A stretch of DNA of 64,000 nt from a virus, in the IMG/VR virus record IMGVR_UViG_3300045988_183134, positions 32,001 to 96,000 of that record. One strand, 5' to 3'. The notes under the pieces were generated by a model. The model was not told the origin of the DNA. It saw only the letters and a list, made by a program, of their open reading frames with translations, and ran no database searches. Both the position numbers and the translations under genes were made by a program. The first letter of the stretch is position 1. Each line of letters opens with the position of its first letter. Positions 4,710-39,933 of the stretch are shown one piece after another.

Positions 4710-4947
4710 TTTTCAAAAGCAATAGCAATCAAGACCACTGCCCCAAAAAGGGTGGTGGTCTTATTTTTTTGCACAATACTTACCATAAATTACCAGAAAG
4801 AAAAACATTGTGCATCTGTGCGAATTGCATATAATACAAAATATAGAACGAAAGGCATCAAAAAACATCGTTGGTCGGGCAAAATCCGACCGAAAGGCTA
4901 GGGCGGGCTCAGTTTTGAACCTGCTCTTTCTTTTTATCGGAGGCTTT

Positions 4948-5475
4948 ATGTCAAACAAAGAAGAACGCATGAACCGCAATAAAAGCATCATCGAAGATTA
5001 CAAAAATAGAAAGCCGATTTTAGAAATCGCGAGGGAATATAATCTTTCAGAAACGATGTGCTACAAGATTCTAAAAGGTACGCAGGAGCCGCCTCGTTAT
5101 TTTGAAAAAAAGAGGAAGAGACTTACCACTCGAAATGAGCAAATTGTTAAACAGTATAAAGGCGGTATGACGGCCAGAGAATTGGGCAAGATGTACGGCA
5201 TTTCCATGCAGCGTATTTATGCAATCTTGCATTCGAGCGGAGAGTACGAAAGCCAAAAATACAATCATATTGAAACGGCTCTCAAAAAAGAGAAAAAGAT
5301 GCGGAACCAAACTTTTCTTGATGCTTACAAGAAAAATCCTCGAAAATCGATTATCGAGTTGAGCAGGGAGGTAAATATCAGCCCTTCACTAGGTTACCTT
5401 ATCCTTCATCAAAATGGGATTTACCAGTATAACGTAAAAGCCAGAGCTAAGGAGAATAGCGAAAATGCCGATTAA
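4948..5475 (+). CDS. DNA-binding protein with 3 tandem HTH modules
   Basis: Repeats such as ILEIAREYNLSETMCYKIL, ARELGKMYGISMQRIYAIL and IIELSREVNISPSLGYLIL. SD GGAGG before ATG4948. Confidence 0.7.
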   Translation: MSNKEERMNRNKSIIEDYKNRKPILEIAREYNLSETMCYKILKGTQEPPRYFEKKRKRLTTRNEQIVKQYKGGMTARELGKMYGISMQRIYAILHSSGEYESQKYNHIETALKKEKKMRNQTFLDAYKKNPRKSIIELSREVNISPSLGYLILHQNGIYQYNVKARAKENSENAD

Positions 5476-5983
5476 CAAGATTACCCACGTGTGTCTAACT
5501 CATGACAAAGTCAGGGCACGAAATGAAAAGATGCTGGAGGATGCCAAGAACGGTATGTCCCAGGAACAGCTGGCCGAAAAGTATCAAATCTGTGTTTCTA
5601 CTGTCCGATATAGTCTGAAGGACTTTTACGAAGAACAGGCCCGGCAGAGAAAAGCAAAGAAGAAAGCCTGGCAAACCCAGATGATTCATGAATATGAGAT
5701 GGGCGCAAAATCTCCGGAGCTTCAGGAAAAATACGGCATCAGTGGAACGCTCTTTTATCGGATTCTTCATGCGCACGGAAAGAATGGCCGACAAATCCAC
5801 AGCCAAAACCGTATCGAGACCGGCAAGAAAAGAAACGCCGAGATGGTCAGGAAATACAAGAACGGCGTTTCTGTCAAAGAGCTTGCGGAAGAATACGGGC
5901 TCAAAAAGGGAAGCGTATATCGCGCCATGAAGCGGTATAGTCCAGGCCCAGGGGAAAGTAAAAGTTGTCAAAGTGAGGAATAA
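5465..5983 (+). CDS. DNA-binding protein with 3 tandem HTH modules (paralog)
   Basis: Repeats QEQLAEKYQICVSTVRYSL, SPELQEKYGISGTLFYRIL and VKELAEEYGLKKGSVYRAM. SD AAGGAG upstream. Confidence 0.7.
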   Translation: MPINKITHVCLTHDKVRARNEKMLEDAKNGMSQEQLAEKYQICVSTVRYSLKDFYEEQARQRKAKKKAWQTQMIHEYEMGAKSPELQEKYGISGTLFYRILHAHGKNGRQIHSQNRIETGKKRNAEMVRKYKNGVSVKELAEEYGLKKGSVYRAMKRYSPGPGESKSCQSEE

Positions 5984-5987
5984 TTGC

Positions 5988-6941
5988 ATGGCTGCATCAA
6001 AGAAAGATGTTGCGAAGCAGCAGGTCAAAGAAGACCGCGAAAAGGTTCGGGAAATGTATCTTTCTGGCAAAACTGTCAAGGAAATCGCCAAGGAAACGTA
6101 TTTTTCAAGCTCTTATTGCTATGCCATGGTGAGAGACCTAGCAAAAGAAAAGAATCTTGCAAAGAAAGCAAAAAGAGCACCTCTCAACGAAGCTATGATT
6201 CAAGATGCGAAAGCCGGGATGACGGTTGCTGAAATCGCAAAGAAGCATGGCGTGACTTATCAGCAGTGCTACTATACTGTTTCTGAATACGCTCAAGCTA
6301 CGATTAAGAAGAACAAGAAAAAGCAGTCTGCTGCCACGAAAGTTCGCAATGCGGCTATGTTGGAAGATGCGAAAGCCGGAATGACTGATAAGGAAATCGC
6401 CAAAAAATACTTTTTGTCTCGAAGCAGTGTCCGTACCGTCCTTGCAGGGCATTTACATACAAATTCCAAAAAGTTGGATGAAAGGCGCAAGGCGATTCTT
6501 GCGGATTATGAGGCAGGAACGTCCTCAAAAGACATCTGTGAGAAATACGGTATTTCAAAATCCACTCTTTACAAGGACATGCGCCAAGTTGAAAAAACCT
6601 GTCAGGAATACTATCACAAGGCGCTGAAAGACAAGACCAATCAAAGGAATTCCGATATTCGAAGCAAAATCGAAAGAGGGGTCTCGGTCAGCACTATTGC
6701 CAAGGAATACGGAATCTCTAAAACGGCGATTTATGAAACGTTTCATCAGGAAAATGTCAGAGCTGGAATTTTACAGAAACGCGGCCGTCCGCGAAAAAAC
6801 ACGGAACGTAATGCACTGATTGCTAAACGCCACAGGGAAGGCGAGAAGGTGCAGGCGCTTGCCACTGAATATAATCTCTCTGTTTCGACGGTAAACACTA
6901 TTTGCAGTAGAAACAAAAATCAGAATATAACCTCATATTAA
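5988..6941 (+). CDS. DNA-binding protein with 6 tandem HTH modules (paralog)
   Basis: Six ~50-aa repeats of pattern R..I...y..G.s..eIAkeYgiS.stvY. SD GTGAGGA before ATG5988. Terminator at 6943-6972. Confidence 0.7.
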   Translation: MAASKKDVAKQQVKEDREKVREMYLSGKTVKEIAKETYFSSSYCYAMVRDLAKEKNLAKKAKRAPLNEAMIQDAKAGMTVAEIAKKHGVTYQQCYYTVSEYAQATIKKNKKKQSAATKVRNAAMLEDAKAGMTDKEIAKKYFLSRSSVRTVLAGHLHTNSKKLDERRKAILADYEAGTSSKDICEKYGISKSTLYKDMRQVEKTCQEYYHKALKDKTNQRNSDIRSKIERGVSVSTIAKEYGISKTAIYETFHQENVRAGILQKRGRPRKNTERNALIAKRHREGEKVQALATEYNLSVSTVNTICSRNKNQNITSY

Positions 6942-6986: not shown

Positions 6987-7901
6987 ATGACAGACGACGT
7001 ACGTAATTTAATTCGATTTGTGGTGGATGGCGATATTCGTAACGCGCAGACTCAGTGCCGAATCATGCTTGAAAAGAATGTACCCGAAAAGGACGCCAGG
7101 TTCAAAGAAAACGAACTCAGAAAGTTGAATCTTCTGAAACCGGAACTGATTCAGCTGCCCGCCAACCTGGAAAACCTCTTGATTGCGGAGGATGCCACGA
7201 ATTTCCCTGAGAGCCGGTTCCTGCTCCGCGAGGAGGAAGAAACAGTCATCAACAAGCTCTTGGCCACCAGAAAAGCAGCTTTAGCCATCAAGGAGCTTGG
7301 CATCCACTATACTTGCTCTTTGCTTTTGACGGGCCTTCCTGGTGTTGGTAAGACTGAATTGGCCCGCTACATTGCACACAAGGCAAATTTACCGTTTGTT
7401 TTCCTGAAATTTTCTGGCCTTGTCAATTCTGCTCTTGGCCGGACACAGCAGAACATCGGCAGAGTGTTCGATTACGCAAAGCGCACGCCCTGCGTTCTTT
7501 GTGTTGATGAAATTGATGCTATCGGAATGTGCCGTGGCGGCCGTGATGACGTCGCTGAAATGAGCCGCGTCACCATCGCATTGATGCAGGAACTTGACCG
7601 GCTCCCGAATGACGTCATTCTCATTGGCACTACAAACCGCGTCGATAACCTTGACGAAGCCCTCATTCGCCGATTCACTTTCAAACACCGCGTCAAGCCT
7701 TTAGGCGACGATGACATGAAAGAACTGTGCAAAAAGTTCCTTGCTTCGGCAGACTATCCCTTCACGGAATCCGAACTCGACGAACTCTGCCATTCGCTGC
7801 GTGAACAGCGGACGGCCAGCGCCGTTGTCAATGCCTGTACAGAACGTATCGTTGCACATATCGTATCGCAGCTGCCTGAAAATTCGACAGATGCCGTGTA
7901 A
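6987..7901 (+). CDS. AAA+ ATPase (classic AAA, FtsH/Cdc48-like module)
   Basis: Walker A GLPGVGKTELA, Walker B VLCVDEID, sensor-1 GTTN, and SRH-like LDEALIRRF. Confidence 0.85.
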   Translation: MTDDVRNLIRFVVDGDIRNAQTQCRIMLEKNVPEKDARFKENELRKLNLLKPELIQLPANLENLLIAEDATNFPESRFLLREEEETVINKLLATRKAALAIKELGIHYTCSLLLTGLPGVGKTELARYIAHKANLPFVFLKFSGLVNSALGRTQQNIGRVFDYAKRTPCVLCVDEIDAIGMCRGGRDDVAEMSRVTIALMQELDRLPNDVILIGTTNRVDNLDEALIRRFTFKHRVKPLGDDDMKELCKKFLASADYPFTESELDELCHSLREQRTASAVVNACTERIVAHIVSQLPENSTDAV

Positions 7902-8604: not shown

Positions 8605-8684
8605 ATTTTTCGCTAACAATCGTCAAGAAATCACATTTCAGTTTATCGGAAGAGTATAATTGTAGTAGAAAGAGAGAAAAAAGC

Positions 8685-9765: not shown

Positions 9766-10011
9766 ACAATTGTTCTCAGGAAGAGGAACGGCTCCTGAGA
9801 CATCAAGGTTTTCCTTTCCCCAATCTTGGTCGCATGGCTTCATTTGAGCTGACACAGGTGAAGCGTGAAAATCATCCGTTTCATAGTAATATCCTTCCTT
9901 TCTTTGGCGTGGGTAACTCCGCGCCAGCCGTCCAAGTAAACAGCCTCCACGCGGCGGACGGTGGACAACAGATGTTTCCGTGTTCCGGGCATCTGGCTAA
10001 TGTTTGTATTT

Positions 10012-10087
10012 GCTGGTTTAGCTCAGCTGGTAGAGCAACTGATTTGTAATCAGTCGGTCATCGGTTCAAGTCCGATTTCCAGCTCCA
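10012..10087 (+). tRNA. tRNA-Thr (TGT)
   Basis: Cloverleaf: gctggtt ta gctc agctggta gagc a actga tTTGTaa tcagt cggtc atcgg ttcaagt ccgat ttccagc t CCA. Two U-U mismatches at the base of the acceptor stem. Confidence 0.75.
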
Positions 10088-10560
10088 GACGCTATCCGTT
10101 GGATGTATCGAAATCACATGATACGATGCTATACACAACATCTGGCGGACAGCATGCCACCCATTAAGGCGGCCTCCTCGTGGCGGGTGGCGGACAGCGG
10201 CTCTTGCGGCTGCTGACGAATGTCTTAGAAGCATGCAAACGTACGAGCATCCCCGTCAAGTCGGGGCGCATCCAGACGCGACACAGCCGTAAAGGCGAGA
10301 TTGCTGCACGGCAACTGGTAAGTTTCGCCGCAGTCTCACACACAGCCCAACGACAACCGTTAACCCGATTTGACAGGGAATCAACGACAGGGCTCAAAAT
10401 TTGAAGTTGACCAACACCCAAGCGCTTTCTTGGATTCTCGCGTATCGTCAACGATGAGGTTCGCAAGATTGTCAGGTGGTGTGAAGATGACATCCGGGGA
10501 TGACGACCTACTAAACGGATGTCATGGCGGGGCTAAGTGAGGGTTCACCCGCAATCTTAT

Positions 10561-10635
10561 GCAGGTATCGTATAACGGCTAATACTCCGCCCCTCCAAGG
10601 CGGAGACGCGGGTTCGACCCCCGCTACTTGCTCCA
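10561..10635 (+). tRNA. tRNA-Gly (TCC) with C at position 33
   Basis: Cloverleaf: gcaggta tc gtat aacggcta atac t ccgcc ccTCCaa ggcgg agac gcggg ttcgacc cccgc tacttgc t CCA. The loop is CCUCCAA rather than CUUCCAA. Confidence 0.8.
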
Positions 10636-10907
10636 CACGTCGCAGTCACCGTACGCCACGACGTTAAACTTGGTGAGCATGGTCCACTTGTGGTCCGCTG
10701 TCCGAATGTCGATGAGACAGCCTCAAAAATAATAGACAAACAGGTGCTGTGCCTGAAAGTATTCGAAAGTCCCGGTGTTAGTCGCGAATAAGACCGGAAA
10801 ACGGTGAATAGGGTACAATACAGAATCTATCGGCGTGGCTGCCGAATGGTGCTGGATGCGAGTTGGCTTCTCGCTCAAGGGGTGACCAGCATAAAACACC
10901 CTATCGT

Positions 10908-10983
10908 GCTCGATTAGCTCAGTTGGTAGAGCAGCGCATTCGTAACGCGCAGGTCGGCAGTTCGAACCTGCCATCAAGCCCCA
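10908..10983 (+). tRNA. tRNA-Thr (CGT)
   Basis: Cloverleaf: gctcgat ta gctc agttggta gagc a gcgca ttCGTaa cgcgc aggtc ggcag ttcgaac ctgcc atcaagc c CCA. One mismatch each in the acceptor and anticodon stems. Confidence 0.7.
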
Positions 10984-11021
10984 TTACCCAATGAAGCGAC
11001 AATAGAAAGGAGATGAAACTT

Positions 11022-11405
11022 ATGGAACAGGCAATTATCAATGTTGAAGGTACGACTACCATTGAAACCGCTGCAGCGGCAAAAAAGCTGATTGAAATGT
11101 TTGGCAATCAGAACGTCCGCGCCATCGCTGTCAACCGTGTAAACGACAAGAGCGACGAGGTCATTGTTGAACTCGATTTCGTTCCCGGTTTGGCACCGCA
11201 TCTGCACGGCTTCACGCTTCAGGTTAATGGCTTGACCTGTGGTTATGCTGGTACTGGTCCTTCCAATCTGTATGAAGTCCTGCAGGCGGCTGGCGTGAGT
11301 GAAGCTCAGGTAGCACGCGAGGACATCACTCAGAAGAGCACAAAAACCATTCCTCTGCGCCTGGAACGCGCCGTGACTCAGTACGGCGACTTCCAGTTTG
11401 CGTAA
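11022..11405 (+). CDS. hypothetical protein embedded in the tRNA region
   Basis: Track ORF 11013..11405. The SD GAAAGGAG abuts ATG11013, so ATG11022 (9 nt spacing) is preferred. Confidence 0.6.
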   Translation: MEQAIINVEGTTTIETAAAAKKLIEMFGNQNVRAIAVNRVNDKSDEVIVELDFVPGLAPHLHGFTLQVNGLTCGYAGTGPSNLYEVLQAAGVSEAQVAREDITQKSTKTIPLRLERAVTQYGDFQFA

Positions 11406-11434
11406 CGCTATTTGGCGGGCTTGACCCGCCATCA

Positions 11435-11510
11435 TGGAGGGATAGCTTAGCTGGATAAAGCACCTGCCGCAAAGCAGGGTATCGATGGTTCGAGGCCATC
11501 TCCCTTCTCC
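11435..11510 (+). tRNA. tRNA-Cys (GCA)-like with a 6-nt anticodon loop
   Basis: Cloverleaf: ggaggga ta gctt agctggata aagc a cctgc cGCAaa gcagg gtatc gatgg ttcgagg ccatc tcccttc t CCA. U73 fits Cys identity. The loop is one nt short. Confidence 0.55.
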
Positions 11511-11870
11511 ATCCAGACACCCTTTCGCTTCCTTTCGCCAAAGGTATCTGGGGTATTGTACTGCATTGCGTGTAGTACGGCCAATCAGGCGCGGAACTCC
11601 GAAACCATACCACGAAGAATTTTATCCTCTCCGCGCAGCATGGACATGCGATTTTACGGGGATAAATTCAAACCGAAATTGTGTCGAGTGGCGAAGACGG
11701 TTGCGACACTGGCGAAGCACATATCTGCTTCGTCAACCATCCATGAGAAAGCCTCCACGTGGCAGATGGTGGGCAACGCAGCAAAGCTGCGGCTGATTTC
11801 TTTCAAACCGGTATCTGAATAAATGCAGATAAATAGACGAAAAAATCAAAAAAGCAAAGGAGTACACAGC

Positions 11871-13004
11871 ATGAGTAATCAGAAAATCATCAAAGCAATC
11901 GCAGGGATTGCAGCAGCCGGTATGATGGCAACTTGTCTGCCTGTCGCAGCATTCGCAGCCACCGGCGACACCTATCATTTCTCTTTCAGCAACGGTTCTT
12001 CCCAGGACCTGGCTCCGGGCGGCTCTATGACGTTCCCGGCAAGCCAGTATGACTACGGTTACTGGATTACCCTGCAGGGCCACGGCGGCTACACCTACAA
12101 CTACTATCCCGGCGACACTCTGCCGTACGATGCAGTTGACCAGTGGTTCACCGCTGACGGCATCACTTCCTGCTATGCGGCCGAAGGTAATCCGCGTTCC
12201 ATCACCATCAACTATCAGATTGACGGCAACACTGTGCTGACCGAAACTGACACCGCCACTTTCCCCGGCAGCGTTGATGGTCAGAGCGTTGAAGCCTGGA
12301 CCACGGATTCCGGTGATACTTACACCGCATCCAGCAAGAGCCTGAACCATGACCGCCTGTTCTACTACCTGGGCGACGACATCCACGACAATGTCCTGAC
12401 CCTGAAAGCCACTTCTGCATCCACTCCCGATGACGGCAAGGATGACAACAAGGGCGATGACAAGGGCGATGTCACCAACCCCGACGATAAGGGCGACAAC
12501 AAGGGCGACAATACCGGCGACAGCGGCACCACCACTCCCGATGACAAGGGCGACGTAGTGGCCCCCGATAAGGACAACACCGGTAAGGACAACACTTCTA
12601 CCGGCTCCAACAAGGGCAACGGTACTACCACCACTACTCCGACCGCTCCTCGCAAGAACGTTGAAGTCTCTGAGCACGGTGAAATTGCCGCCGCTATTGC
12701 CAATGGCACCTGGGGCAATGAGTACACCGTCTGCACCAGCTGTGGCTATCACAACTGGACCCGCAAGGGTAACGTTTACGTCTGTGACCATTGTGGTCAT
12801 GAAGTTCTGACTGTTAAGGGCGCTGATGGCGTCAAGGGCTATGCTGGCACTCTGGCTGGCAACGAGCCCCAGTACGCTTCTACCTCTGAAGCTCAGGCTG
12901 CTGCTGAAAAGCGTGAAGCCGCTTATGCCGCTTCCATCGCTGCTTTGCAGGCACAGGTTGCCGCTCGTGAAGCTGCTTATGCTGCTTCCCTGGGCATCCA
13001 CTAA
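11871..13004 (+). CDS. secreted protein with D/K/G-rich low-complexity linker and C-terminal CxxC zinc ribbon
   Basis: Signal peptide MSNQKIIKAIAGIAAAGMMATCLPVAAFA-A. Repeats DDKGDNKGD. CTSCGYH...CDHCGH. SD AAAGGAG before ATG11871. Confidence 0.8.
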   Translation: MSNQKIIKAIAGIAAAGMMATCLPVAAFAATGDTYHFSFSNGSSQDLAPGGSMTFPASQYDYGYWITLQGHGGYTYNYYPGDTLPYDAVDQWFTADGITSCYAAEGNPRSITINYQIDGNTVLTETDTATFPGSVDGQSVEAWTTDSGDTYTASSKSLNHDRLFYYLGDDIHDNVLTLKATSASTPDDGKDDNKGDDKGDVTNPDDKGDNKGDNTGDSGTTTPDDKGDVVAPDKDNTGKDNTSTGSNKGNGTTTTTPTAPRKNVEVSEHGEIAAAIANGTWGNEYTVCTSCGYHNWTRKGNVYVCDHCGHEVLTVKGADGVKGYAGTLAGNEPQYASTSEAQAAAEKREAAYAASIAALQAQVAAREAAYAASLGIH

Positions 13005-13041: not shown

Positions 13042-13115
13042 CGAGGATTCGCCAAACGGTAAGGCATCAGGCTTTGACCCTGACAACGGTTGTTCGACTC
13101 GACCATTCTCGGCCA
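13042..13115 (+). tRNA. tRNA-Gln (TTG)
   Basis: Cloverleaf: cgaggat tc gcc aaacggtaa ggc a tcagg ctTTGac cctga caac ggttg ttcgact cgacc attctcg g CCA. Confidence 0.8.
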
Positions 13116-13195
13116 ACGCTCACTTTCATGCGCATCGGAAGTGAGATTCCTCAAAGCTGTGTTCCCATAAGCAAGGCACGGAAGATGCGCGACAA

Positions 13196-13271
13196 GTGCT
13201 CGTAACTCAATCGGTAGAGTACCCGACTTTTAATCGGGGTGTTCGGGATTCGATTTCCCGCGAGCGCACCA
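13196..13271 (+). tRNA. tRNA-Lys (TTT)
   Basis: Cloverleaf: gtgctcg ta actc aatcggta gagt a cccga ctTTTaa tcggg gtgtt cggga ttcgatt tcccg cgagcgc a CCA. Confidence 0.85.
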
Positions 13272-13302
13272 TGCCCGGCAGAGCATTATCTGCCACTTTT
13301 GT

Positions 13303-13378
13303 GGGTGTATAGCTCAGTAGGCAGAGCGGCGGACCGTTAATCCGTTTGTCGCAGGTTCAAATCCTGCTACGCCCGCCA
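13303..13378 (+). tRNA. tRNA-Asn (GTT) with C at position 33
   Basis: Cloverleaf: gggtgta ta gctc agtaggca gagc g gcgga ccGTTaa tccgt ttgtc gcagg ttcaaat cctgc tacgccc g CCA. Confidence 0.8.
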
Positions 13379-13381
13379 TAA

Positions 13382-13459
13382 GCTCCTCTGGTGAAATTGG
13401 CAGACACAGTGCGCTCAAACCGCACCGTTTTGAGGGTTCGAATCCCTCGGGGAGTACCA
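13382..13459 (+). tRNA. atypical tRNA, anticodon CAA (Leu-type D-arm but short variable region)
   Basis: Cloverleaf: gctcctc tg gtg aaattggcaga cac a gtgcg ctCAAac cgcac cgtttt gaggg ttcgaat ccctc ggggagt a CCA. G1-U72 pair. Confidence 0.6.
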
Positions 13460-13488
13460 TGTCCGGCAGTACAACAACTGCCATTTAT

Positions 13489-13564
13489 GGGTTGTTAGCT
13501 CAGCTGGTAGAGCAACGGACCGTTAATCCGTGGGCCGCAGGTTCAAACCCTGTACAACCCGCCA
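13489..13564 (+). tRNA. tRNA-Asn (GTT), second copy, also C33
   Basis: Cloverleaf: gggttgt ta gctc agctggta gagc a acgga ccGTTaa tccgt gggcc gcagg ttcaaac cctgt acaaccc g CCA. Confidence 0.8.
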
Positions 13565-13567
13565 TAT

Positions 13568-13642
13568 GCTCCAGTGGCGAAACTGGCAAACGCGGCGGCT
13601 TTATGTCCCGTTTTACTCTGGGTTCGACTCCCAGCTGGAGTA
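13568..13642 (+). tRNA. atypical tRNA-like gene, anticodon ambiguous (TAT if the loop is 7 nt)
   Basis: Cloverleaf: gctccag tg gcg aaactggcaaa cgc g gcggc ttTATgt cccgt tttact ctggg ttcgact cccag ctggagt a. C-C mismatch at 31-39 (or a 9-nt loop). No encoded CCA. Confidence 0.45.
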
Positions 13643-13649
13643 TCTATAT

Positions 13650-13725
13650 AGGGGTGTAGCTCAAGTGGTAGAGCAGCGGTCTCCAAAACCGCTTGTTGCA
13701 TGTTCGAGTCGTGTTACCCCTGCCA
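13650..13725 (+). tRNA. tRNA-Trp (CCA)
   Basis: Cloverleaf: aggggtg ta gctc aagtggta gagc a gcggt ctCCAaa accgc ttgtt gcatg ttcgagt cgtgt tacccct g CCA. Confidence 0.8.
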
Positions 13726-13735
13726 CAATAAGAAA

Positions 13736-13769
13736 AGCCGTCCTCACATAAGAGGCGGCTTTTTGTTTT
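13736..13769 (+). terminator. rho-independent terminator ending tRNA array 2
   Basis: AGCCGTCCTC-acataa-GAGGCGGCT followed by TTTTTGTTTT. Confidence 0.8.
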
Positions 13770-13807
13770 GGAGAGTATACAGACCAAAAAACTAAACCAC
13801 AAGTTGA

Positions 13808-13835
13808 TTGCAGATGTGCAAAAACATGGTATAAT
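13808..13835 (+). promoter_or_regulatory. sigma-A-type promoter
   Basis: TTGCAG (13808-13), 16 nt spacer, TGgTATAAT (13827-35). Confidence 0.55.
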
Positions 13836-13869
13836 AATATCAGAACGAAACGAAAGGAGATACCCCAAA

Positions 13870-14010
13870 ATGCTGTGCAACACTGTTAATGTCATGTCGT
13901 ATGAGTATAGTTACGAATATTCTGAGTTCATGTCCTTTGAACGCAGTTTTATTTCTCATACTCCTCGACAGGCAAAAACAGACCATGTACAGATGCGGTG
14001 CGTCTTCTAA
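13870..14010 (+). CDS. hypothetical small protein (46 aa)
   Basis: Strong SD GAAAGGAG 8 nt before ATG13870, inside track ORF 13768..14010. Confidence 0.45.
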   Translation: MLCNTVNVMSYEYSYEYSEFMSFERSFISHTPRQAKTDHVQMRCVF

Positions 14011-14095
14011 GCGATAACTGCATGTCATAGCTGCTTGTCGAGATTTCGGCAGGCAGCTTTTTTGTTGCCTGCAATACAGAAAGGCAGCAAGAAAA

Positions 14096-14317
14096 ATGAA
14101 CGTTCCTACTATTGATATCCAGCAGACAGGTGCCAATATCAAGGCCCTGCGAAAGGCAGCAGGCATCAAGGTGAAGGATGTGGCAGACATGCTCGGTGTA
14201 TCTCCGCAGGCGGTTGCTAAATGGCAAGCCGGAACAGCGCTTCCCACCATCGATAACCTTGTGATATTAGCAGCAATGCTCGATACGAAAATTGATGACA
14301 TCCTTGTCATCGCATAA
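14096..14317 (+). CDS. XRE-family HTH transcriptional regulator
   Basis: IKALRKAAGIKVKDVADMLGVSPQAVAKWQAGTALPTIDNLVILAAML is a canonical HTH_3/Cro-C1 pattern. Confidence 0.85.
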   Translation: MNVPTIDIQQTGANIKALRKAAGIKVKDVADMLGVSPQAVAKWQAGTALPTIDNLVILAAMLDTKIDDILVIA

Positions 14318-14346
14318 ACCCTCGCCGCAGGATTGCGGCTATATAT

Positions 14347-14426
14347 GGCCCGTTGGACGAATTGGTAGAGTTGCCGCCCTTTCACGGCGGAGGTTATTGT
14401 GGGTTCGAAACCCACACGGGTCACCA
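14347..14426 (+). tRNA. tRNA-Glu (TTC)
   Basis: Cloverleaf: ggcccgt tg gac gaattggtaga gtt g ccgcc ctTTCac ggcgg aggttatt gtggg ttcgaaa cccac acgggtc a CCA. Confidence 0.75.
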
Positions 14427-14427
14427 T

Positions 14428-14503
14428 GCTTCTGTAGCTCAACAGGTAGAGCAGTGGTCTGAAGAGCCACGTGCAGCTGGTTCGAATCCAGCCGGAAGCA
14501 CCA
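14428..14503 (+). tRNA. tRNA-Phe (GAA)
   Basis: Cloverleaf: gcttctg ta gctc aacaggta gagc a gtggt ctGAAga gccac gtgca gctgg ttcgaat ccagc cggaagc a CCA. Confidence 0.85.
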
Positions 14504-14527
14504 TCGAGGTTTTATACCTCATTCTAT

Positions 14528-14612
14528 GTGTCGGTATGCAAGTGGTTAAAGCAAACGGTCTGTAAAACCGCTCCGTTACGGTTCACTGGTTCGAATCCAG
14601 TCCGACACACCA
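14528..14612 (+). tRNA. tRNA-Tyr (GTA), class II
   Basis: Cloverleaf: gtgtcgg ta tgc aagtggttaa agca a acggt ctGTAaa accgc, long variable arm tccgttacggttc, actgg ttcgaat ccagt ccgacac a CCA. Confidence 0.85.
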
Positions 14613-14615
14613 TAA

Positions 14616-14689
14616 GGCCCCTTCGACAAGTTGGTCTAAGTCGCCAGCCTCTCAAGCTGGAGTCGGCAGTTCGAGTCTGCCAGGGGTCA
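14616..14689 (+). tRNA. tRNA-Glu (CTC)
   Basis: Cloverleaf: ggcccct tc gac aagttggtctaa gtc g ccagc ctCTCaa gctgg agtc ggcag ttcgagt ctgcc aggggtc a. No encoded CCA. Confidence 0.75.
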
Positions 14690-14725
14690 TACAAGCACCT
14701 ATGTTATGTCAAAAAGGTGCATTAT

Positions 14726-14815
14726 GCAGAGGTCGCCTAACGGTAGGGCAGCAGCTTGCTAAGCTGCCGTCGCGGAAATCGCGGCATGTGAGTTCGAATC
14801 TCACCCTCTGCGCCA
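14726..14815 (+). tRNA. tRNA-Ser (GCT), class II
   Basis: Cloverleaf: gcagagg tc gcc taacggtag ggc a gcagc ttGCTaa gctgc, long variable arm cgtcgcggaaatcgcggca, T-arm gtgag ttcgaat ctcac, cctctgc g CCA. Confidence 0.85.
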
Positions 14816-14818
14816 TCT

Positions 14819-14906
14819 GCTTGCTTGTTCGAGTGGTTGATGAAATCGGTCCAGAAAACCGACGATGGGAGACTGTCCGAAGGTTCGAATCCTTCAGCAA
14901 GCGCCA
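14819..14906 (+). tRNA. tRNA-Ser-like, class II, unusual loop CCAGAAA (anticodon AGA with C33)
   Basis: Cloverleaf: gcttgct tg ttc gagtggttgat gaa a tcggt ccAGAaa accga, long variable arm, gaagg ttcgaat ccttc agcaagc g CCA. Confidence 0.65.
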
Positions 14907-30387: not shown

Positions 30388-32454
<2,067 letters not shown>

Positions 32455-34485: not shown

Positions 34486-36066
34486 ATGGCTAAGAAGAAT
34501 AACAACGTCACTTTCAACGTCGGCATCACCAACCATTACTTTGACGCTATTTCGCGCCAGAAGTTACCCATGAGCGATGCCGCTTGTGAGCCGGTTGATA
34601 ATGCCATCTCTAATTGCAAAGATGCCATTAACATCTTGGTCGCGATTGTGAAAGGCCATGCCAAAAACCTAATCGGTGTGGTTATTGCCGACTGGGGCAA
34701 TGGTATGTCTAAGGAAAAGCTGCCGGAAAACCTACAGTTTGGCAACGGCCACAGCAATGAGGGCCCGCTGTGCATCCATGGCGTTGGCCTGAATAATTTC
34801 ATTTTGGTTGCCACCCGCAACAAGTATCCCTGGTTCATCGCTTCCAAGCAGCCTGGAGAGGACAGCTATCACCGCGTTGACGGCCCGTTCGCCACGACCA
34901 TGACGATGTCCGAGCAGGAAGAGATTCCTATGGCAGATGTCGTTATGCGTGAGCAGTTTAAGGCTCTTGGCGCTCCTTCTACCATCATCTATGTGGAGAT
35001 GGACAAGGCTACCGCCAGCACCATGCTGACCAAGAACGGCAGCTGCGCTGAGAGCCGGGTCACCAGCCTGAACGTGCTGCGTACCTGCCTGGCTGAGCAC
35101 TTTGGTGTCAAGTACCGCAATTACTTGGCACCTGACGCTACCGGCGTTGCTCCCGCCCGTATCCTGATTCCTGATTTCCATATGGCGAATGGCAAGACGT
35201 GCGATGTGCTCGTCAAGCCTATTTTCCAGCCGTATAAGGAGAAACAGAAGGAAAAGAACTTCACTGTTGACTATGATGGGTACGAGATTCCTGTCAAGGT
35301 TGAGTGTGGTCAGCTGGATACGGATGCGACCAAAGGTGTTGTTACTGGTGGCTATGACTTGAAGCATTTCTACCAGAACAACATGCTTACGCAGGGCTTG
35401 GATATCCAGCTCGGCGAGCGTGTTATCGCCACCGCTCAGTTTGATACCATCTGGGACAAGGCTCGTCACCCGGCCTTCAACGCTTTCACCGGCGTTGTTG
35501 CTGTTGATATTTCCGGTCTGCCGCGTGGGTTCTTGAATACCCTCGCCAACAAGTCGGATATCGACCTGAGCGACAAGGGATGGCGTAAAATTTTCGACGC
35601 TATTGCCGAAAACGTGAAGCCTCTCGAAAGCGAGCCTCTCACTCTTGAGAAATATGCGCAGGATTTTGCAAATCGGCTGGTTGCAGACACCGGGAATGAA
35701 GTTGAACTCCAGTTCCCTCTGTACGCAAACCGGACTCGTATCGACGTTCTGGAACATATCGACGAGTCCCACTGCAAGATTTATGACTTCATGAGCGGCG
35801 TTGCTACTTTGAAGTCTGTAACCGAGCTGCGGACTCATTGGGATGGCATGGTTGCACAGGGCATTCAGCCTGTTTCGGCTGTGATGTTCTGCAATAAGCG
35901 CGGTCCTATGCTCAAACATACCTGCGACGAGATGAACACTCTCGTGCAGGCTATGAATGACGAGGACTTCTACATGACCCTCGAAGCTGCTGGTGGTGAT
36001 GCGTCTAAGATGCCACACTACAACTTCGATGTTATTCTTGACCAGAATATCCCCGTGAAGAAATAA
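34486..36066 (+). CDS. GHKL-superfamily ATPase (HATPase_c_3 / MORC-MutL-like N-terminal domain) with unknown C-terminal region
   Basis: N-box EPVDNAISN, G1 box ADWGNGMS, G2-like IHGVGLNNF, in the canonical order within the first ~110 aa. Confidence 0.65.
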   Translation: MAKKNNNVTFNVGITNHYFDAISRQKLPMSDAACEPVDNAISNCKDAINILVAIVKGHAKNLIGVVIADWGNGMSKEKLPENLQFGNGHSNEGPLCIHGVGLNNFILVATRNKYPWFIASKQPGEDSYHRVDGPFATTMTMSEQEEIPMADVVMREQFKALGAPSTIIYVEMDKATASTMLTKNGSCAESRVTSLNVLRTCLAEHFGVKYRNYLAPDATGVAPARILIPDFHMANGKTCDVLVKPIFQPYKEKQKEKNFTVDYDGYEIPVKVECGQLDTDATKGVVTGGYDLKHFYQNNMLTQGLDIQLGERVIATAQFDTIWDKARHPAFNAFTGVVAVDISGLPRGFLNTLANKSDIDLSDKGWRKIFDAIAENVKPLESEPLTLEKYAQDFANRLVADTGNEVELQFPLYANRTRIDVLEHIDESHCKIYDFMSGVATLKSVTELRTHWDGMVAQGIQPVSAVMFCNKRGPMLKHTCDEMNTLVQAMNDEDFYMTLEAAGGDASKMPHYNFDVILDQNIPVKK

Positions 36067-36074
36067 CATCACTT

Positions 36075-36105
36075 GCCGTCATCCGAAAGGGTGGCGGCAT
36101 TTTTT
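36075..36105 (+). terminator. rho-independent terminator
   Basis: GCCGTCATCC-gaaa-GGGTGGCGGC followed by ATTTTTT. Confidence 0.8.
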
Positions 36106-36199
36106 GTTGAGCTATTGCTTAAACATCAAGATTCCTCATGTGGAGTGTAGCGTTTTGTACCGATATATGCTATAATTGGCACAAAAAGGAGGAACCGAC

Positions 36200-36580
36200 A
36201 TGGCAGAAAATAATAACAACGGTGGCAAAAACACTAATATCATCACCAAAATTAACGATACCATTTCCAAAGTCCTGGGCGATTTCCCGCCCGTTGTTCA
36301 GACAATCGCAAAAATCGTTGTCTTCGGTGGGCTCATCCTGCTTATCGCCAAAGCCATCGGCTATATTTTCCCGGTTATTGTGAACGTTCTTTTCAACCTC
36401 TTAGTCAAAATCGTTGGCTTCTGCATTCTGGCAGCCTTTCTTTACGGCTGCTGGTACGAGGTAAAACTGCAAATGACTCGCGATGAAAACTCCTTCCTGC
36501 TGAATGAACGACTCAAGTATCAGAAAAAAGAATACGAGGAACGTGAGCACAGAAGACAAGAACGAGATAACAGACGATAA
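36200..36580 (+). CDS. membrane protein with basic coiled C-terminal tail
   Basis: SD AAGGAGG before ATG36200. Two or three TM helices, then KKEYEEREHRRQERDNRR. Confidence 0.7.
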   Translation: MAENNNNGGKNTNIITKINDTISKVLGDFPPVVQTIAKIVVFGGLILLIAKAIGYIFPVIVNVLFNLLVKIVGFCILAAFLYGCWYEVKLQMTRDENSFLLNERLKYQKKEYEEREHRRQERDNRR

Positions 36581-36637
36581 TACATAATCATACATAGGCT
36601 GTCCAGCTTCGGTTGGGCAGCTTTTTTTATTTTCCTG

Positions 36638-36665
36638 TTGCAGGCTCTTGCGAATCGTATACCAT
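36638..36665 (+). promoter_or_regulatory. promoter of the TGCGAA-spacer class (no leader)
   Basis: TTGCAG-gctct-TGCGAA-tcgta-TACCAT. Preceded by terminator 36598-36628. Confidence 0.55.
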
Positions 36666-36688
36666 AAAAAGTATGAAAGGAGTTTATC

Positions 36689-36919
36689 ATGAAAACACTT
36701 GAATCCTTTTTTAGCAGAACTGCACAGTTTGGCTTGCTCATTTATCTGACCGGCTGCTTTGGCCTGTTGATTGTTTTAGGCGCTGCAGTCGCAAAATGGC
36801 TTAAACTCATCGACGTAATTCAATATATTGCCTTTGCTTTTGGACTTGGACTCCTCACTTTGCTTATCGGCATGGTGGGTCTCTCACTCCTCGGCATTAG
36901 GGGTATTGAAGAATTTTAG
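36689..36919 (+). CDS. small membrane protein (76 aa)
   Basis: Track ORF. SD AAAGGAG upstream. Two TM helices. TAG stop. Confidence 0.65.
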   Translation: MKTLESFFSRTAQFGLLIYLTGCFGLLIVLGAAVAKWLKLIDVIQYIAFAFGLGLLTLLIGMVGLSLLGIRGIEEF

Positions 36920-37103
36920 TGGAATGACCCCATCCCACTAAGTTCCTTCAATATCACAGGCGGATGTACTTTTGTACATCAAGATGACGAGCTGCACTTG
37001 TACGGTTTTCCCAGCTTGCAACCATGCGAAGGCGTCATCTAGCCAAGGGAAACACAACCTCCTGCTTCGGCAGGAGAGATTTATCGTAAAGGAGGTGGCG
37101 AAT
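36920..37103 (+). ncRNA. candidate omega-RNA scaffold (or part of it) upstream of IscB
   Basis: Non-coding and densely paired: GATGACG...CGTCATC (36983/37033), CTCCTGC-ttcg-GCAGGAG, and ACCTCC complementary to the IscB SD GGAGGT. The position fits IscB loci. Confidence 0.35.
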
Positions 37104-38642
37104 ATGTCCACTGTTTATGTACTTAACAAAGACGGTAAACCTTTGATGCCTACGACTCGCGGCGGACATGTGCGCCACCTGCTTAAAGAGCAAAAAGCAC
37201 GAGTCGTAAGAGCAAAACCGTTTACCATCCAACTGCTGTATGAAACCAATGATGTAGTGCAGCCCCTATATTTAGGCATTGACCCTGGTAGAACCAATAT
37301 CGGCGTTGCCGTTGTTAAAGCAAATGGAACGGCAGTCTTTACGGCACATCTGGAAACTCGCAACAAAGAGGTTCCAAAATTGATGCAAGACCGTAAAAAA
37401 GCCCGCCGTGCAAGACGCACAAACGGCAGACGTTGTCGCCGTCAGCGGAGAGCTAAGGCAAATGGCACCATTTCTAAGAAGTGCGTGAAGCAAGATACTG
37501 CTCAAAGTAAGAATCCTAGCAAACGTGCAAAAGAAATTGGCATCATCAAACGTCGCCTTCCGGGTTATAAGAAAGATGTACTCTGCATTGGTATTAAAAA
37601 CAAAGAAGCAAAGTACACCAATCGCACAAGACCGGAAGGATGGCTTACGCCTACCGCGAATCAGTTGCTCCAAACACACATCAATTTGGTGAGAAAAATG
37701 CAAAAGTTCCTTCCTATCAGTGATGTTGTGCTTGAAGTAAACAAATTTGCGTTCATGCGGCTTGATAATCCTGACATTCAGAAATGGCAGTACCAACAAG
37801 GCCCACTCTACCAAAAAGGGAGTCTTGAAAATGCTGTTTCTGAAATGCAGGAACACCATTGCCTGTTCTGTGATAAACCCATCGACCATTACCACCATGT
37901 AGTGCCGCAATCCGAGAATGGCAGCAACACCATTGCCAATATCGTTGGTCTATGCGCGGAGCATCATAACCTTGTTCATAAAGATGCTGCCTGGCAAAAG
38001 AAACTTGCCAAAGAAAAAGTTGGACTTAACAAAAAGTACGGCGCTTTGAGTGTATTGAATCAAATCATTCCGGCACTGACGAATAAATTGAGTGTGCTAT
38101 TTCCAAAGCACTTTTTTGTGACAGCAGGAAAGAGCACCCATGACTATCGTGCAGCGCACGGTGTAAGTAAAGACCATTGGCTCGACGCTTACTGCATTGC
38201 TTGTTCTGTCTTGCCGAGCAATGTCTGTGATAGCAACATCAACAATCATATGCCGTATGAGCTTAAACAGTTCCGCCGTCATGATAGAAGAGTGTTAAAC
38301 AATGAAAATATGAACCGCGTGTACACACTCGATAATAAGGCAGTTGCTATAAATCGGCATAAAGCAACGGAACAAGAAGCTGCCAGCCTAGAAGAATTTC
38401 GCAAAGAGCATCCGAATGATGTTTGCAAGCTTAAAGTTAAAGAGCACCATCCAACATACAGAAACATGAACCGTAACTATCCAGGAAGCATATTTCTTGT
38501 TGGAAAGCATGTTCATATAATGCAAGGAATAGCTGGCTCTAAAGACGGAAAAGCAACAACATACAAAGACTCTAACGCAAACTCAATAACGGCGAGTAAA
38601 TGCAAATTTGTTGCAAAAAATTCTGGCATATTGTTTGTGTAG
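37104..38642 (+). CDS. iscB: IscB-type RNA-guided nuclease (OMEGA system effector)
   Basis: N-terminal PLMP domain (NKDGKPLMPT), RuvC-I LGIDPGRTNIG, Arg-rich bridge helix RKKARRARRTNGRRCRRQRR, RuvC-II VVLEVNKF, HNH CLFCDKPIDHYHHVVP...NIVGLCAEHHNLVH, and RuvC-III KDHWLDAYCIA. SD AAGGAGG before ATG37104. Confidence 0.85.
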   Translation: MSTVYVLNKDGKPLMPTTRGGHVRHLLKEQKARVVRAKPFTIQLLYETNDVVQPLYLGIDPGRTNIGVAVVKANGTAVFTAHLETRNKEVPKLMQDRKKARRARRTNGRRCRRQRRAKANGTISKKCVKQDTAQSKNPSKRAKEIGIIKRRLPGYKKDVLCIGIKNKEAKYTNRTRPEGWLTPTANQLLQTHINLVRKMQKFLPISDVVLEVNKFAFMRLDNPDIQKWQYQQGPLYQKGSLENAVSEMQEHHCLFCDKPIDHYHHVVPQSENGSNTIANIVGLCAEHHNLVHKDAAWQKKLAKEKVGLNKKYGALSVLNQIIPALTNKLSVLFPKHFFVTAGKSTHDYRAAHGVSKDHWLDAYCIACSVLPSNVCDSNINNHMPYELKQFRRHDRRVLNNENMNRVYTLDNKAVAINRHKATEQEAASLEEFRKEHPNDVCKLKVKEHHPTYRNMNRNYPGSIFLVGKHVHIMQGIAGSKDGKATTYKDSNANSITASKCKFVAKNSGILFV

Positions 38643-38718
38643 TATGAATTAAAAGTAATAAAACCACGAAAAATCTTCAATAGCCGCAAAACCGCAAACA
38701 TAAGGAGGCAAAACACGT

Positions 38719-39933
38719 ATGAGTAAAAAGATTATCAATATCACCGCAGCTGCCATGGCACTCGCCGTGACACTTTCCGGCTGCGCCACAGCTGTGGTTC
38801 AGGAACGGAAAGACCAGGCAGCCGCAGTAGCAAGCGCAGAAGCAGCACAGGCTGCCGCAACAGCAACACCGGAACCGACAGCAGAACCGACCCCGGAACC
38901 CATCAATGCCTGGTCTTTGTTGTCGAATCTCCCGGATTTCACGCCCGGCACGCTGGACAATCCTGACACTACCTGGCCGGACGGTATTCCGATGGGGCAG
39001 AGTCCTTTGTCTTACGATGACGGCAGCAAGTTCTATTCGCTGCGCAGCGTTGATACCGGCAAGACACTGGATATCACGGACGTTGCATTACAGGATGTAC
39101 GGGATTTGCCTGTAAAGGGATATCTGAAATTGAACGAACTTGAAAACGGTGATACAGTCATTGGTGAAATCAATGCAGAATCCACAGGCGAAGGCGTAGA
39201 AAAGGAAATCAGTGATTTTTCCATTCACACTGCCAGCAAGGATGACGGCTGTGACTATTATCCGATTGGATATAACGGCGGTTCACTGACCTTGATGCTG
39301 GACGGTCGTGCAGCCAATGATGATGGCATCAATATCGGCGATGCGTTCCTTGACGGTCTCTATTATTCGTCTGTCACTCCGGACAAATTCGACGGCTATC
39401 CGACCGACGGAGAGCCGGAGGAACAGTTCAACTTCCTGTATGGTTTGTTTGGCAATCCGTCCGGTCTCTACTGGACAAACAACGATTCTGTCGCTTTCAA
39501 TTCCAGCAAGCAGTATCGTACCTTTGAAGATTTCCGAGATGCAGATTATGATGTTGAAATTGGCGGCAAGAACTTCTATCTGGTTTGGAACTATGACGGG
39601 TATAGTGTTGTTGCGGCGTGCAACGATACCTTTGACAGCGCTAATGTGAAGGGCACTACGATTCAGGATATTTACTTGTTCCCGAACATGACAGAAACCA
39701 AGTACCTAGTCGAAAATTCCGGCAGCCTGATTAGCGGTTATCTGGGTTATGGTGAAGTTCCCGTCATCTTGACTGGTACATACACATCAGTCAACAGTGA
39801 TTCGACTGTCGAACAGGATACAAGCGCAGAAGAAAACACCGACGCTGAATCTGGTGACAATTCCACGGCGGACGAAAACGCTGAGTCCAGTTCCGATGAT
39901 AACAGCAACAGTTCGGAAAATTCCGATTCTTAA
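38719..39933 (+). CDS. lipoprotein with acidic low-complexity C-terminus
   Basis: Signal and lipobox MSKKIINITAAAMALAVTLSGC. SD AAGGAGG upstream. Confidence 0.8.
   Translation: MSKKIINITAAAMALAVTLSGCATAVVQERKDQAAAVASAEAAQAAATATPEPTAEPTPEPINAWSLLSNLPDFTPGTLDNPDTTWPDGIPMGQSPLSYDDGSKFYSLRSVDTGKTLDITDVALQDVRDLPVKGYLKLNELENGDTVIGEINAESTGEGVEKEISDFSIHTASKDDGCDYYPIGYNGGSLTLMLDGRAANDDGINIGDAFLDGLYYSSVTPDKFDGYPTDGEPEEQFNFLYGLFGNPSGLYWTNNDSVAFNSSKQYRTFEDFRDADYDVEIGGKNFYLVWNYDGYSVVAACNDTFDSANVKGTTIQDIYLFPNMTETKYLVENSGSLISGYLGYGEVPVILTGTYTSVNSDSTVEQDTSAEENTDAESGDNSTADENAESSSDDNSNSSENSDS

Follow-up and report, generated by a model that had tools for sequence, protein, structure and literature searches.

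OMEGA nucleases are thought to exist in answer to scarless excision: Y1 or serine transposases remove the element without a scar, and the nuclease restores the lost copy. HEARO RNA (Rfam RF02033) is the curated RNA associated with IscB. By the definition of Kapitonov et al. (2016, PMC4810608), ISC elements insert at a specific 4-bp target, generate no duplication of it, carry a hairpin at either end and are devoid of inverted repeats. TnpA is missing from the neighbourhood of most IscB genes (Meers et al. preprint, 10.1101/2023.03.14.532601). A 2026 OMEGA review calls the association of these nucleases with DDE-type transposons rare in prokaryotes, gives TnpB cases only and mentions no IscB example on inverted-repeat/DDE transposons (PMC13565253). 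IscB, omega-RNA, the absence of TnpA and IscB-like phage genes are already known; an IscB whose transposon has inverted repeats and duplicates its target was not reported in the literature searched. Here we analyse an iscB locus in a 64,000-nt stretch of viral DNA (IMG/VR record IMGVR_UViG_3300045988_183134, positions 32,001 to 96,000; hereafter the window, with coordinates counted from its first letter and features on the + strand unless stated otherwise). Judged from sequence comparison, the segment 36901-38685 is probably a non-autonomous transposable cassette of a large, uncultured gut phage that acts as an RNA-guided homing drive between co-infecting phages.

The whole mobile element spans 1,785 bp (36901-38685), with a 1-nt ambiguity, one G being assignable to either junction. 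When about 30 elements from unrelated flanks are compared with the window, the homologous stretch extends from about 36901 to about 38685. The uninterrupted site, CGGCATTAG joined directly to GCAAAACC (in longer context, ...CTCGGCATTAG running into GCAAAACC...), is present in three contigs belonging to the same phage lineage (L038, L043 and L071), and the window therefore carries a 1,785-bp insertion. Within this lineage, 16 contigs are occupied and 3 are empty. The insertion lies at the end of a phage ORF (open reading frame) of 76 aa (36689-36919), which takes its last five codons (GIEEF) and its stop from the left end of the element and so terminates in IRGIEEF; in the empty allele, the same ORF ends in ...IRQNRKHKEAKRA, overlapping the ATG of the next gene.

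Both ends of the element are formed by 22-bp terminal inverted repeats, GGGTATTGAAGAATTTTAGTGG on the left (36901-36922) and, on the right, a repeat at 38664-38685 (- strand; reverse complement GGCTATTGAAGATTTTTCGTGG), which agree at 19 of 22 positions. The repeat has two matches in the 64-kb window, both of them element ends, and none in 100 shuffles; inverted repeats were also found in a clade of 54% identity. The left repeat doubles as the 5' arm of the guide-adaptor hairpin of the putative omega-RNA, and the right end forms no hairpin (z = 0.2–0.3 on either strand). The sequence-only reading that preceded this analysis had seen no recognisable insertion-sequence ends; the exact boundaries, the inverted repeats and the empty-site allele in sister phages now supply them.

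Relatives of the element number at least 136 in IMG/VR, from which 80 loci were fetched. They occupy more than 20 different phage sites, with two copies in several contigs, and copies are 98–100% identical in many contigs. Target duplications of 8 bp (8/8 or 7/8 positions) flank the element at 12 independent sites distributed over three sequence subfamilies; non-cognate flank pairs mostly match at 1–4 of 8 positions, and the few non-cognate pairs that match at 8/8 are the same sites entered more than once. The duplicated 8-mer is single-copy in the corresponding empty alleles, in L124 for GCCGAAAT and in L125-127 for TCTAAACC. No conserved 4-5-nt target was found, as the 4 nt bordering the element on the left and the 4 nt bordering it on the right vary among all sites. 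The family combines inverted repeats with a duplication of fixed length (absent from the window copy and from about 4 other sites), the features by which DDE-type transposons are recognised.

The ends also travel without the nuclease. Elements of 910 and 978 bp that lack IscB carry the same ends around a 253-aa phage gene, which replaces both IscB and the omega-RNA (L018:8855-9764, also L097-L100; L115-L117), and these elements have 8-bp duplications of their own, AATAATTT and TATTTTTW. About 45 nt of the left end, with the guide-adaptor hairpin, and about 65 nt of the right end are kept in them, and apparently suffice to move cargo genes between phage genomes. The 253-aa cargo ORF was considered as a transposase and rejected: it has no Pfam domain and is an ordinary, repeat-free phage gene in most contigs. 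Other remnants include a 495-bp deletion derivative that retains only IscB codons 1-78 and occupies the same site as a full copy (L136, ending at 12020), an 84-bp mini-element (L153:12436-12519), and solo right ends joined to phage genes at their 3' termini (L160 ending at 8635, L137 and L144). We conclude, because of the more than 20 sites, the duplications, the deletion derivatives and the solo ends, that the IscB element behaves as an active selfish element and is not domesticated, as had been proposed from the sequence alone.

The element was found on phage contigs only. Among 185,579 bacterial and archaeal species genomes we found no close IscB relative, the best full-length matches reaching 26–29% identity, besides a few N-terminal remnants of 50 aa. 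GenBank phage records gave no DNA match (megablast, blastn), and GenBank phage proteins include just IscB-like "HNH endonucleases" of 23–32% identity, from Staphylococcus, Clostridium and Ralstonia phages. In a collection of 5.8 billion proteins there are 1,730 relatives, encoded on contigs as long as about 300 kb; the neighbours of one 57%-identical relative are UvrD, RecJ and RtcB, again without TnpA. OgeuIscB, the solved IscB from a human-gut metagenome, was itself not found in IMG/VR. Two further OMEGA nucleases, in the same phage lineages, lie near copies of the element: a 385-aa TnpB of IS200/605 type (L136:5674-6828, +; 2.1e-98) and a second, divergent IscB of 469 aa (L154:5657-7063, -; 6.4e-78).

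The protein encoded by the element has every hallmark of an RNA-guided nuclease, as initially noticed. Its coding sequence (37104-38642) comprises 512 aa and a TAG stop (38640-38642), and begins at ATG 37104, 8 nt after a Shine-Dalgarno sequence (AGGAGG, 37090-37095) visible in the sequence itself; an ORF called mechanically would start at TTG 36972 and be 556 aa long. The motifs follow in the expected order: PLMP (residues 13-16), GIDPG with the RuvC-I Asp60 (58-62), an Arg-rich bridge helix (97-119), VVLEVN with the RuvC-II Glu211 (208-213), an HNH domain made of CLFC...DHYHH (253-265) and N...HH..H (272-292), and the RuvC-III motif KDHWLDAYC (356-364). IscB matches the NCBIfam equivalog guided_IscB at 227.7 bits (cut-off 175, E = 1.8e-67) and the Pfam domains RRXRR (1e-48) and HNH, and its alignment with the solved OgeuIscB chains covers the full length (E of about 1e-167, 52.8% identity). 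In a residue-by-residue alignment, GIDPG, LE.N, DHYHHVVP, GLC.EHH.LVH and KDH.LDAYC are identical in the two proteins, and no catalytic residue is substituted. The dN/dS ratio of iscB against five relatives is 0.07–0.12, which therefore indicates purifying selection on the protein. We conclude from these sequence features that the window ORF is an intact IscB of the OMEGA class. A separate observation concerns its start: a 26-nt pairing, 81% complementary, joins the Shine-Dalgarno/start region (37084-37109) to codons 21-29 (37164-37189). It could occlude the iscB start site, or could have arisen by chance, because its second arm codes for the conserved GGHVRHLLKE.

The sequence-only reading had also placed a structured, non-coding region immediately upstream of iscB and taken it for a candidate omega-RNA. 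The 184 nt at 36920-37103 are indeed free of ORFs, and the prediction of an omega-RNA gained support from folding, covariation and layout; the structured RNA begins 19 nt earlier than had been thought, at 36901, within the last codons of the upstream 76-aa ORF. The 203 nt at 36901-37103 fold with a minimum free energy of -71.7 kcal/mol (z = -4.97), and none of 200 shuffles is equally stable. Equivalent stretches from 26 and from 9 diverged elements were aligned, and pairs were counted on a hand-written structure including the pseudoknot; on this structure, 87% of cells in alignment A3 are paired vs 33–40% with the partners slid, and 21 pairs are altered on both sides, a result matched by none of 500 shuffles.

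The predicted scaffold (36901-37103) consists of a guide-adaptor hairpin that is also the left transposon end (36902-36955, arms 83% complementary), a nexus stem (36959-36961 with 37042-37044), a stem-loop (36963-36980), a central stem (36982-36989 with 37033-37040), a pseudoknot hairpin (36994-37027), and a terminal UUCG hairpin (37059-37076) retained across relatives. Many compensatory changes separate the guide-adaptor hairpins of the subfamilies, and folded as DNA this hairpin has z = -5.4. CCC in the loop of the pseudoknot hairpin (37010-37012) is predicted to pair with GGG at 37047-37049, forming a nexus pseudoknot; both triplets are unchanged in 9/9 sequences, and the pairing is inferred only, because they never vary. 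In OgeuIscB, the C93-C96:G155-G158 pairing, equivalent in position, is essential (Kato et al., PMC9640706). Covariation thus supports the view that the approximately 200 nt 5' of iscB are its cognate omega-RNA, with the predicted architecture of the OgeuIscB RNA.

ACCTCC (37058-37063), once read as pairing with the iscB Shine-Dalgarno sequence, is not supported as an anti-Shine-Dalgarno element: it is the 5' arm of the conserved, local UUCG-capped hairpin at 37059-37076, and its pairing with the Shine-Dalgarno sequence has no covariation support. HEARO RNA has the same genomic position, 5' of an IscB-type HNH ORF, but its covariance model (RF02033) finds no match in 36000-39500 even at E <= 10, where Rfam as a whole returns only chance miRNA and snoRNA matches; nor does any HEARO match in the window reach the gathering score.

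If the scaffold begins at 36901, the guide of the omega-RNA would be the 16 nt at 36885-36900, CACTCCTCGGCATTAG, which are phage flank, belong to the 3' end of the 76-aa ORF, and stand directly 5' of scaffold nucleotide G1, as in OgeuIscB. This sequence is identical to that of the empty allele in L038, L043 and L071. The guide match is followed by GCAA in the empty allele and by GGGT in the occupied allele, and GCAA (38686-38689 in the window) abuts it in the empty allele only, where guide and GCAA are intact together. OgeuIscB uses NNRR as its target-adjacent motif (TAM) (PMC9640706), and GCAA is a candidate TAM by its fit with this motif. In the empty alleles of L018 and L050, GCAA and ATAG follow the guide match. 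At duplication-type sites, all 13 entries (12 independent sites) have A at position +3 after the duplication, and the stretch from +1 to +7 is rich in purines; the left side shows no mirror image of this. The right-side asymmetry fits TAM selection. The guide differs among all sites, being whatever flank the element occupies. As had been anticipated, the guide identifies the target, which is the element's own phage flank, matched in the empty allele; a target in host or plasmid DNA, as had also been suggested, is not supported. Two routes by which new sites might be picked were considered and rejected on inspection. The donor guide might choose them, or a guide that spans a circle junction might do so, but the target sequences are unrelated to each other and to the right-end terminus.

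These data suggest how the element may spread. Transcription from the upstream phage gene would read into the element and yield an omega-RNA with a 16-nt guide from the left phage flank; the 76-aa ORF, the omega-RNA and iscB all lie downstream of a strong intrinsic terminator (36596-36623; 12-bp stem, UUCG loop and T-run) that follows the ORF at 36176-36580. Because the guide is the phage DNA to the left of the element, the IscB-omega-RNA complex would be directed at the element's own insertion site in its uninterrupted form, and the occupied genome would be spared by the scaffold start GGGT, which stands in place of an NNRR-type TAM. The nuclease would cut empty alleles when phages co-infect a cell or when genome copies replicate side by side, and recombination with an occupied copy would insert the element, a process of homing that amounts to super-Mendelian drive; damage to competitor genomes would be a side effect. 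Homing and inter-phage competition, already raised from the sequence alone, are the best-fitting reading of the data. New sites would be reached through an enzyme acting in trans on the inverted repeats and usually leaving an 8-bp duplication, in the manner of a DDE transposase, and not through the Y1 mechanism of IS200/IS605. Classical restoration after excision is less likely, because a cut-and-paste footprint that keeps both copies of the duplication would rarely put a TAM after the guide match (about 3/11 sites, by inspection).

Beyond this, we suggest tentatively, and with less assurance than for the homing cassette itself, that the family is the first described in which IscB and omega-RNA ride on a DDE-like transposon with terminal inverted repeats and 8-bp duplications, the guide-adaptor hairpin doubling as a transposon end and the whole acting as a self-reprogramming phage gene drive. 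The same joint reading, held no more firmly, would have the family found only in large gut phages, its ends shuttling other phage genes and its insertions persisting preferentially where a TAM follows the duplication.

Several observations weigh against the interpretation of the element as a DDE-like homing cassette. The window copy has no duplication (2/8 positions match), its insertion being exactly additive, and L024, L015 and L051 also lack one (about 4 sites besides the window copy); L024 was considered as the same site as that of the window and rejected, the flanks having no similarity. No transposase was found among the 90 window ORFs in the Pfam and NCBIfam summaries, beside any copy examined or within any repeat-bounded unit, at any IMG/VR right end of two subfamilies, or among the NCBIfam matches listed for 185 cluster-representative ORFs of >= 230 aa, drawn from element-bearing phage loci that total approximately 1.85 Mb. 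The region upstream of the guide showed no sigma-70-like promoter. The TAM assignment is taken over from an enzyme of 53% identity, and the purine-rich sequence after the duplication could have another cause, selection for insertions placed directly 5' of ribosome-binding sites. In L014, L028, L029, L033, L062 and L065, an IscB element connects the left flank of one site with the right flank of a different one, a combination produced by either inter-phage recombination or chimeric assembly, and the comparison sequences are metagenome assemblies throughout.

Among the alternatives, an ordinary non-autonomous ISC element of IS200/IS605 type survives best. Here a Y1 TnpA in trans would peel and paste the element, and IscB would re-cut the scarless donor joint to restore it. 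IscB is the signature gene of ISC elements, most IscB genes have no TnpA nearby (so that its absence from the window, correctly noticed at the outset, is nothing special), the left end has a strong hairpin, the window copy is perfectly additive and duplication-free, and an IS200/605-type TnpB is present in these phage loci (L136:5674-6828). An ISC element as defined by Kapitonov et al. has no inverted repeats, no duplications and 4-bp targets (PMC4810608), whereas this family has 22-bp terminal inverted repeats and genuine 8-bp duplications at 12 sites (empty alleles are known for two), neither flank holds a conserved 4-5-nt target, and the right end is hairpin-free. A crude scan for HUH-motif ORFs, the only screen applied to ORFs < 230 aa in these loci, gave no obvious Y1 TnpA beside the one confirmed phage TnpB. 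We regard an ISC origin as unlikely.

Less probable again is a domesticated phage weapon that has lost its mobility and directs a fixed guide against host, plasmid or rival-phage DNA. Such a role would suit an intact IscB under purifying selection that was found on phage contigs only, with no close relative in the 185,579 bacterial species genomes, and cutting of empty alleles would harm rival phages too. Yet the guide is the local flank and site-specific each time, the element is polymorphic for presence and absence inside one phage lineage, and duplications, derivatives and solo ends have been left behind.

It is very improbable that IscB and omega-RNA insert the element directly, by staggered RNA-guided cuts whose fill-in gives the 8-bp duplication with no separate transposase. 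The lack of a detected transposase, the coincidence of the duplication length with the 8-nt seed of the OgeuIscB guide (PMC9640706), and the TAM-like sequence after each duplication speak for it; against it, a guide that comes from the donor flank has no way to address new sites, the duplications and 16-nt flanks resemble, on inspection, neither each other nor the right-end terminus, and IscB-less cargo elements with the same ends transposed too, leaving duplications. That the locus is an inactive relic of an old insertion, as the missing nearby transposase and the duplication-free window copy might imply, is scarcely credible given a dN/dS of about 0.1 with all catalytic motifs intact, compensatory changes that maintain omega-RNA pairs, and copies 98–100% identical in many contigs.

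The remaining content of the window agrees with the phage context first proposed. The window coincides with a 64,049-nt IMG/VR contig (L001), all its genes lie on one strand, sister contigs extend to 161 kb, and PHROG and Pfam matches include anti-repressors (Ant), late activators, a tail lysozyme and an NAD ligase. Two arrays (10012-11511 and 13042-14906) together hold 17 tRNA genes; one, labelled tRNA-??? (11436-11511), has an abnormal anticodon loop and is not called by Rfam. An HDV-like ribozyme (RF02682, HDV-F-prausnitzii; 9927-10007, 47.9 bits, gathering score 44) stops 4 nt short of tRNA-Thr(UGU) at 10012, which may indicate a host of Faecalibacterium or Oscillospiraceae type and processing of the tRNA with the help of the ribozyme. 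An IS630/HTH_Tnp match was rejected as a transposase: it belongs to a tandem trio of regulators with helix-turn-helix (HTH) domains only (4810-6938), paralogous multi-HTH proteins of 221, 172 and 322 aa that are Mor-like, of the CD3324 family, and have no catalytic domain. One window protein matches the IteA_antiphage ATPase (NCBIfam, 2e-49) and Pfam AAA, and is probably the ORF at 6987-7898, going by its Walker A motif GLPGVGKT alone. Just upstream of the IscB block, a 526-aa ORF (34486-36066) has a weak HATPase_c_3 match (8.5e-05, below cut-off) and no PHROG match.

If an abundant IscB family with terminal inverted repeats and duplications is real, the nuclease would also pay as a pure homing drive on naive alleles, within phage populations, and this idea is directly testable, as occupied and empty alleles are both visible in public data. 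The family shows in what kind of transposon the OgeuIscB clade, used in genome editing, naturally occurs, supplies dozens of natural guide/TAM pairs, and offers a minimal end pair (about 45 nt and 65 nt) that is apparently sufficient for moving cargo genes between phage genomes.

Compared with OgeuIscB (PDB 7XHT, 7UTN), the window IscB shares 52.8% identity over its full length and all catalytic motifs, and its scaffold measures 203 nt before the ATG, against 206 nt there, with the same order of parts: guide-adaptor hairpin, nexus stem, central stem, CCC-loop pseudoknot hairpin, A-rich linker and UUCG terminal hairpin. The natural flanks also fit the NNRR TAM. The two differ in the length of the guide-adaptor hairpin (about 23 bp here, 14 bp there), in the third helix of the junction, which in the window subfamily is placed 5' of the central stem, in an insertion of 19 aa that follows the bridge helix, and in TI-domain residues; for the window element, moreover, the native transposon context is known.

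With ISC and IS200/IS605 elements, the family has in common a size of about 1.3–1.8 kb, IscB as sole gene, multiple copies, no TnpA in cis, a boundary at the guide/scaffold junction and a hairpin in the left end. It departs from them in its 22-bp inverted repeats, its 8-bp duplications at most sites, and its lack of a conserved target and of a right-end hairpin. The prokaryotic TnpB genes of inverted-repeat DDE-type transposons (PMC13565253) are another parallel, in which an OMEGA nuclease likewise sits on a transposon with terminal inverted repeats and duplications that is neither IS605 nor IS607; those transposons encode their transposase, whereas here the nuclease is IscB, no transposase was found and the replicon is a phage. 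Finally, like the free-standing phage homing endonucleases (SegF, Mob and I-TevI types), the nuclease gene lies between conserved phage genes and is polymorphic among relatives, and IscB is predicted to cut the allele without it and to spread by recombination at co-infection. Unlike those enzymes, IscB travels on an element with discrete transposon ends, and its target would be set by a guide RNA copied from the flank and automatically reprogrammed at each insertion.

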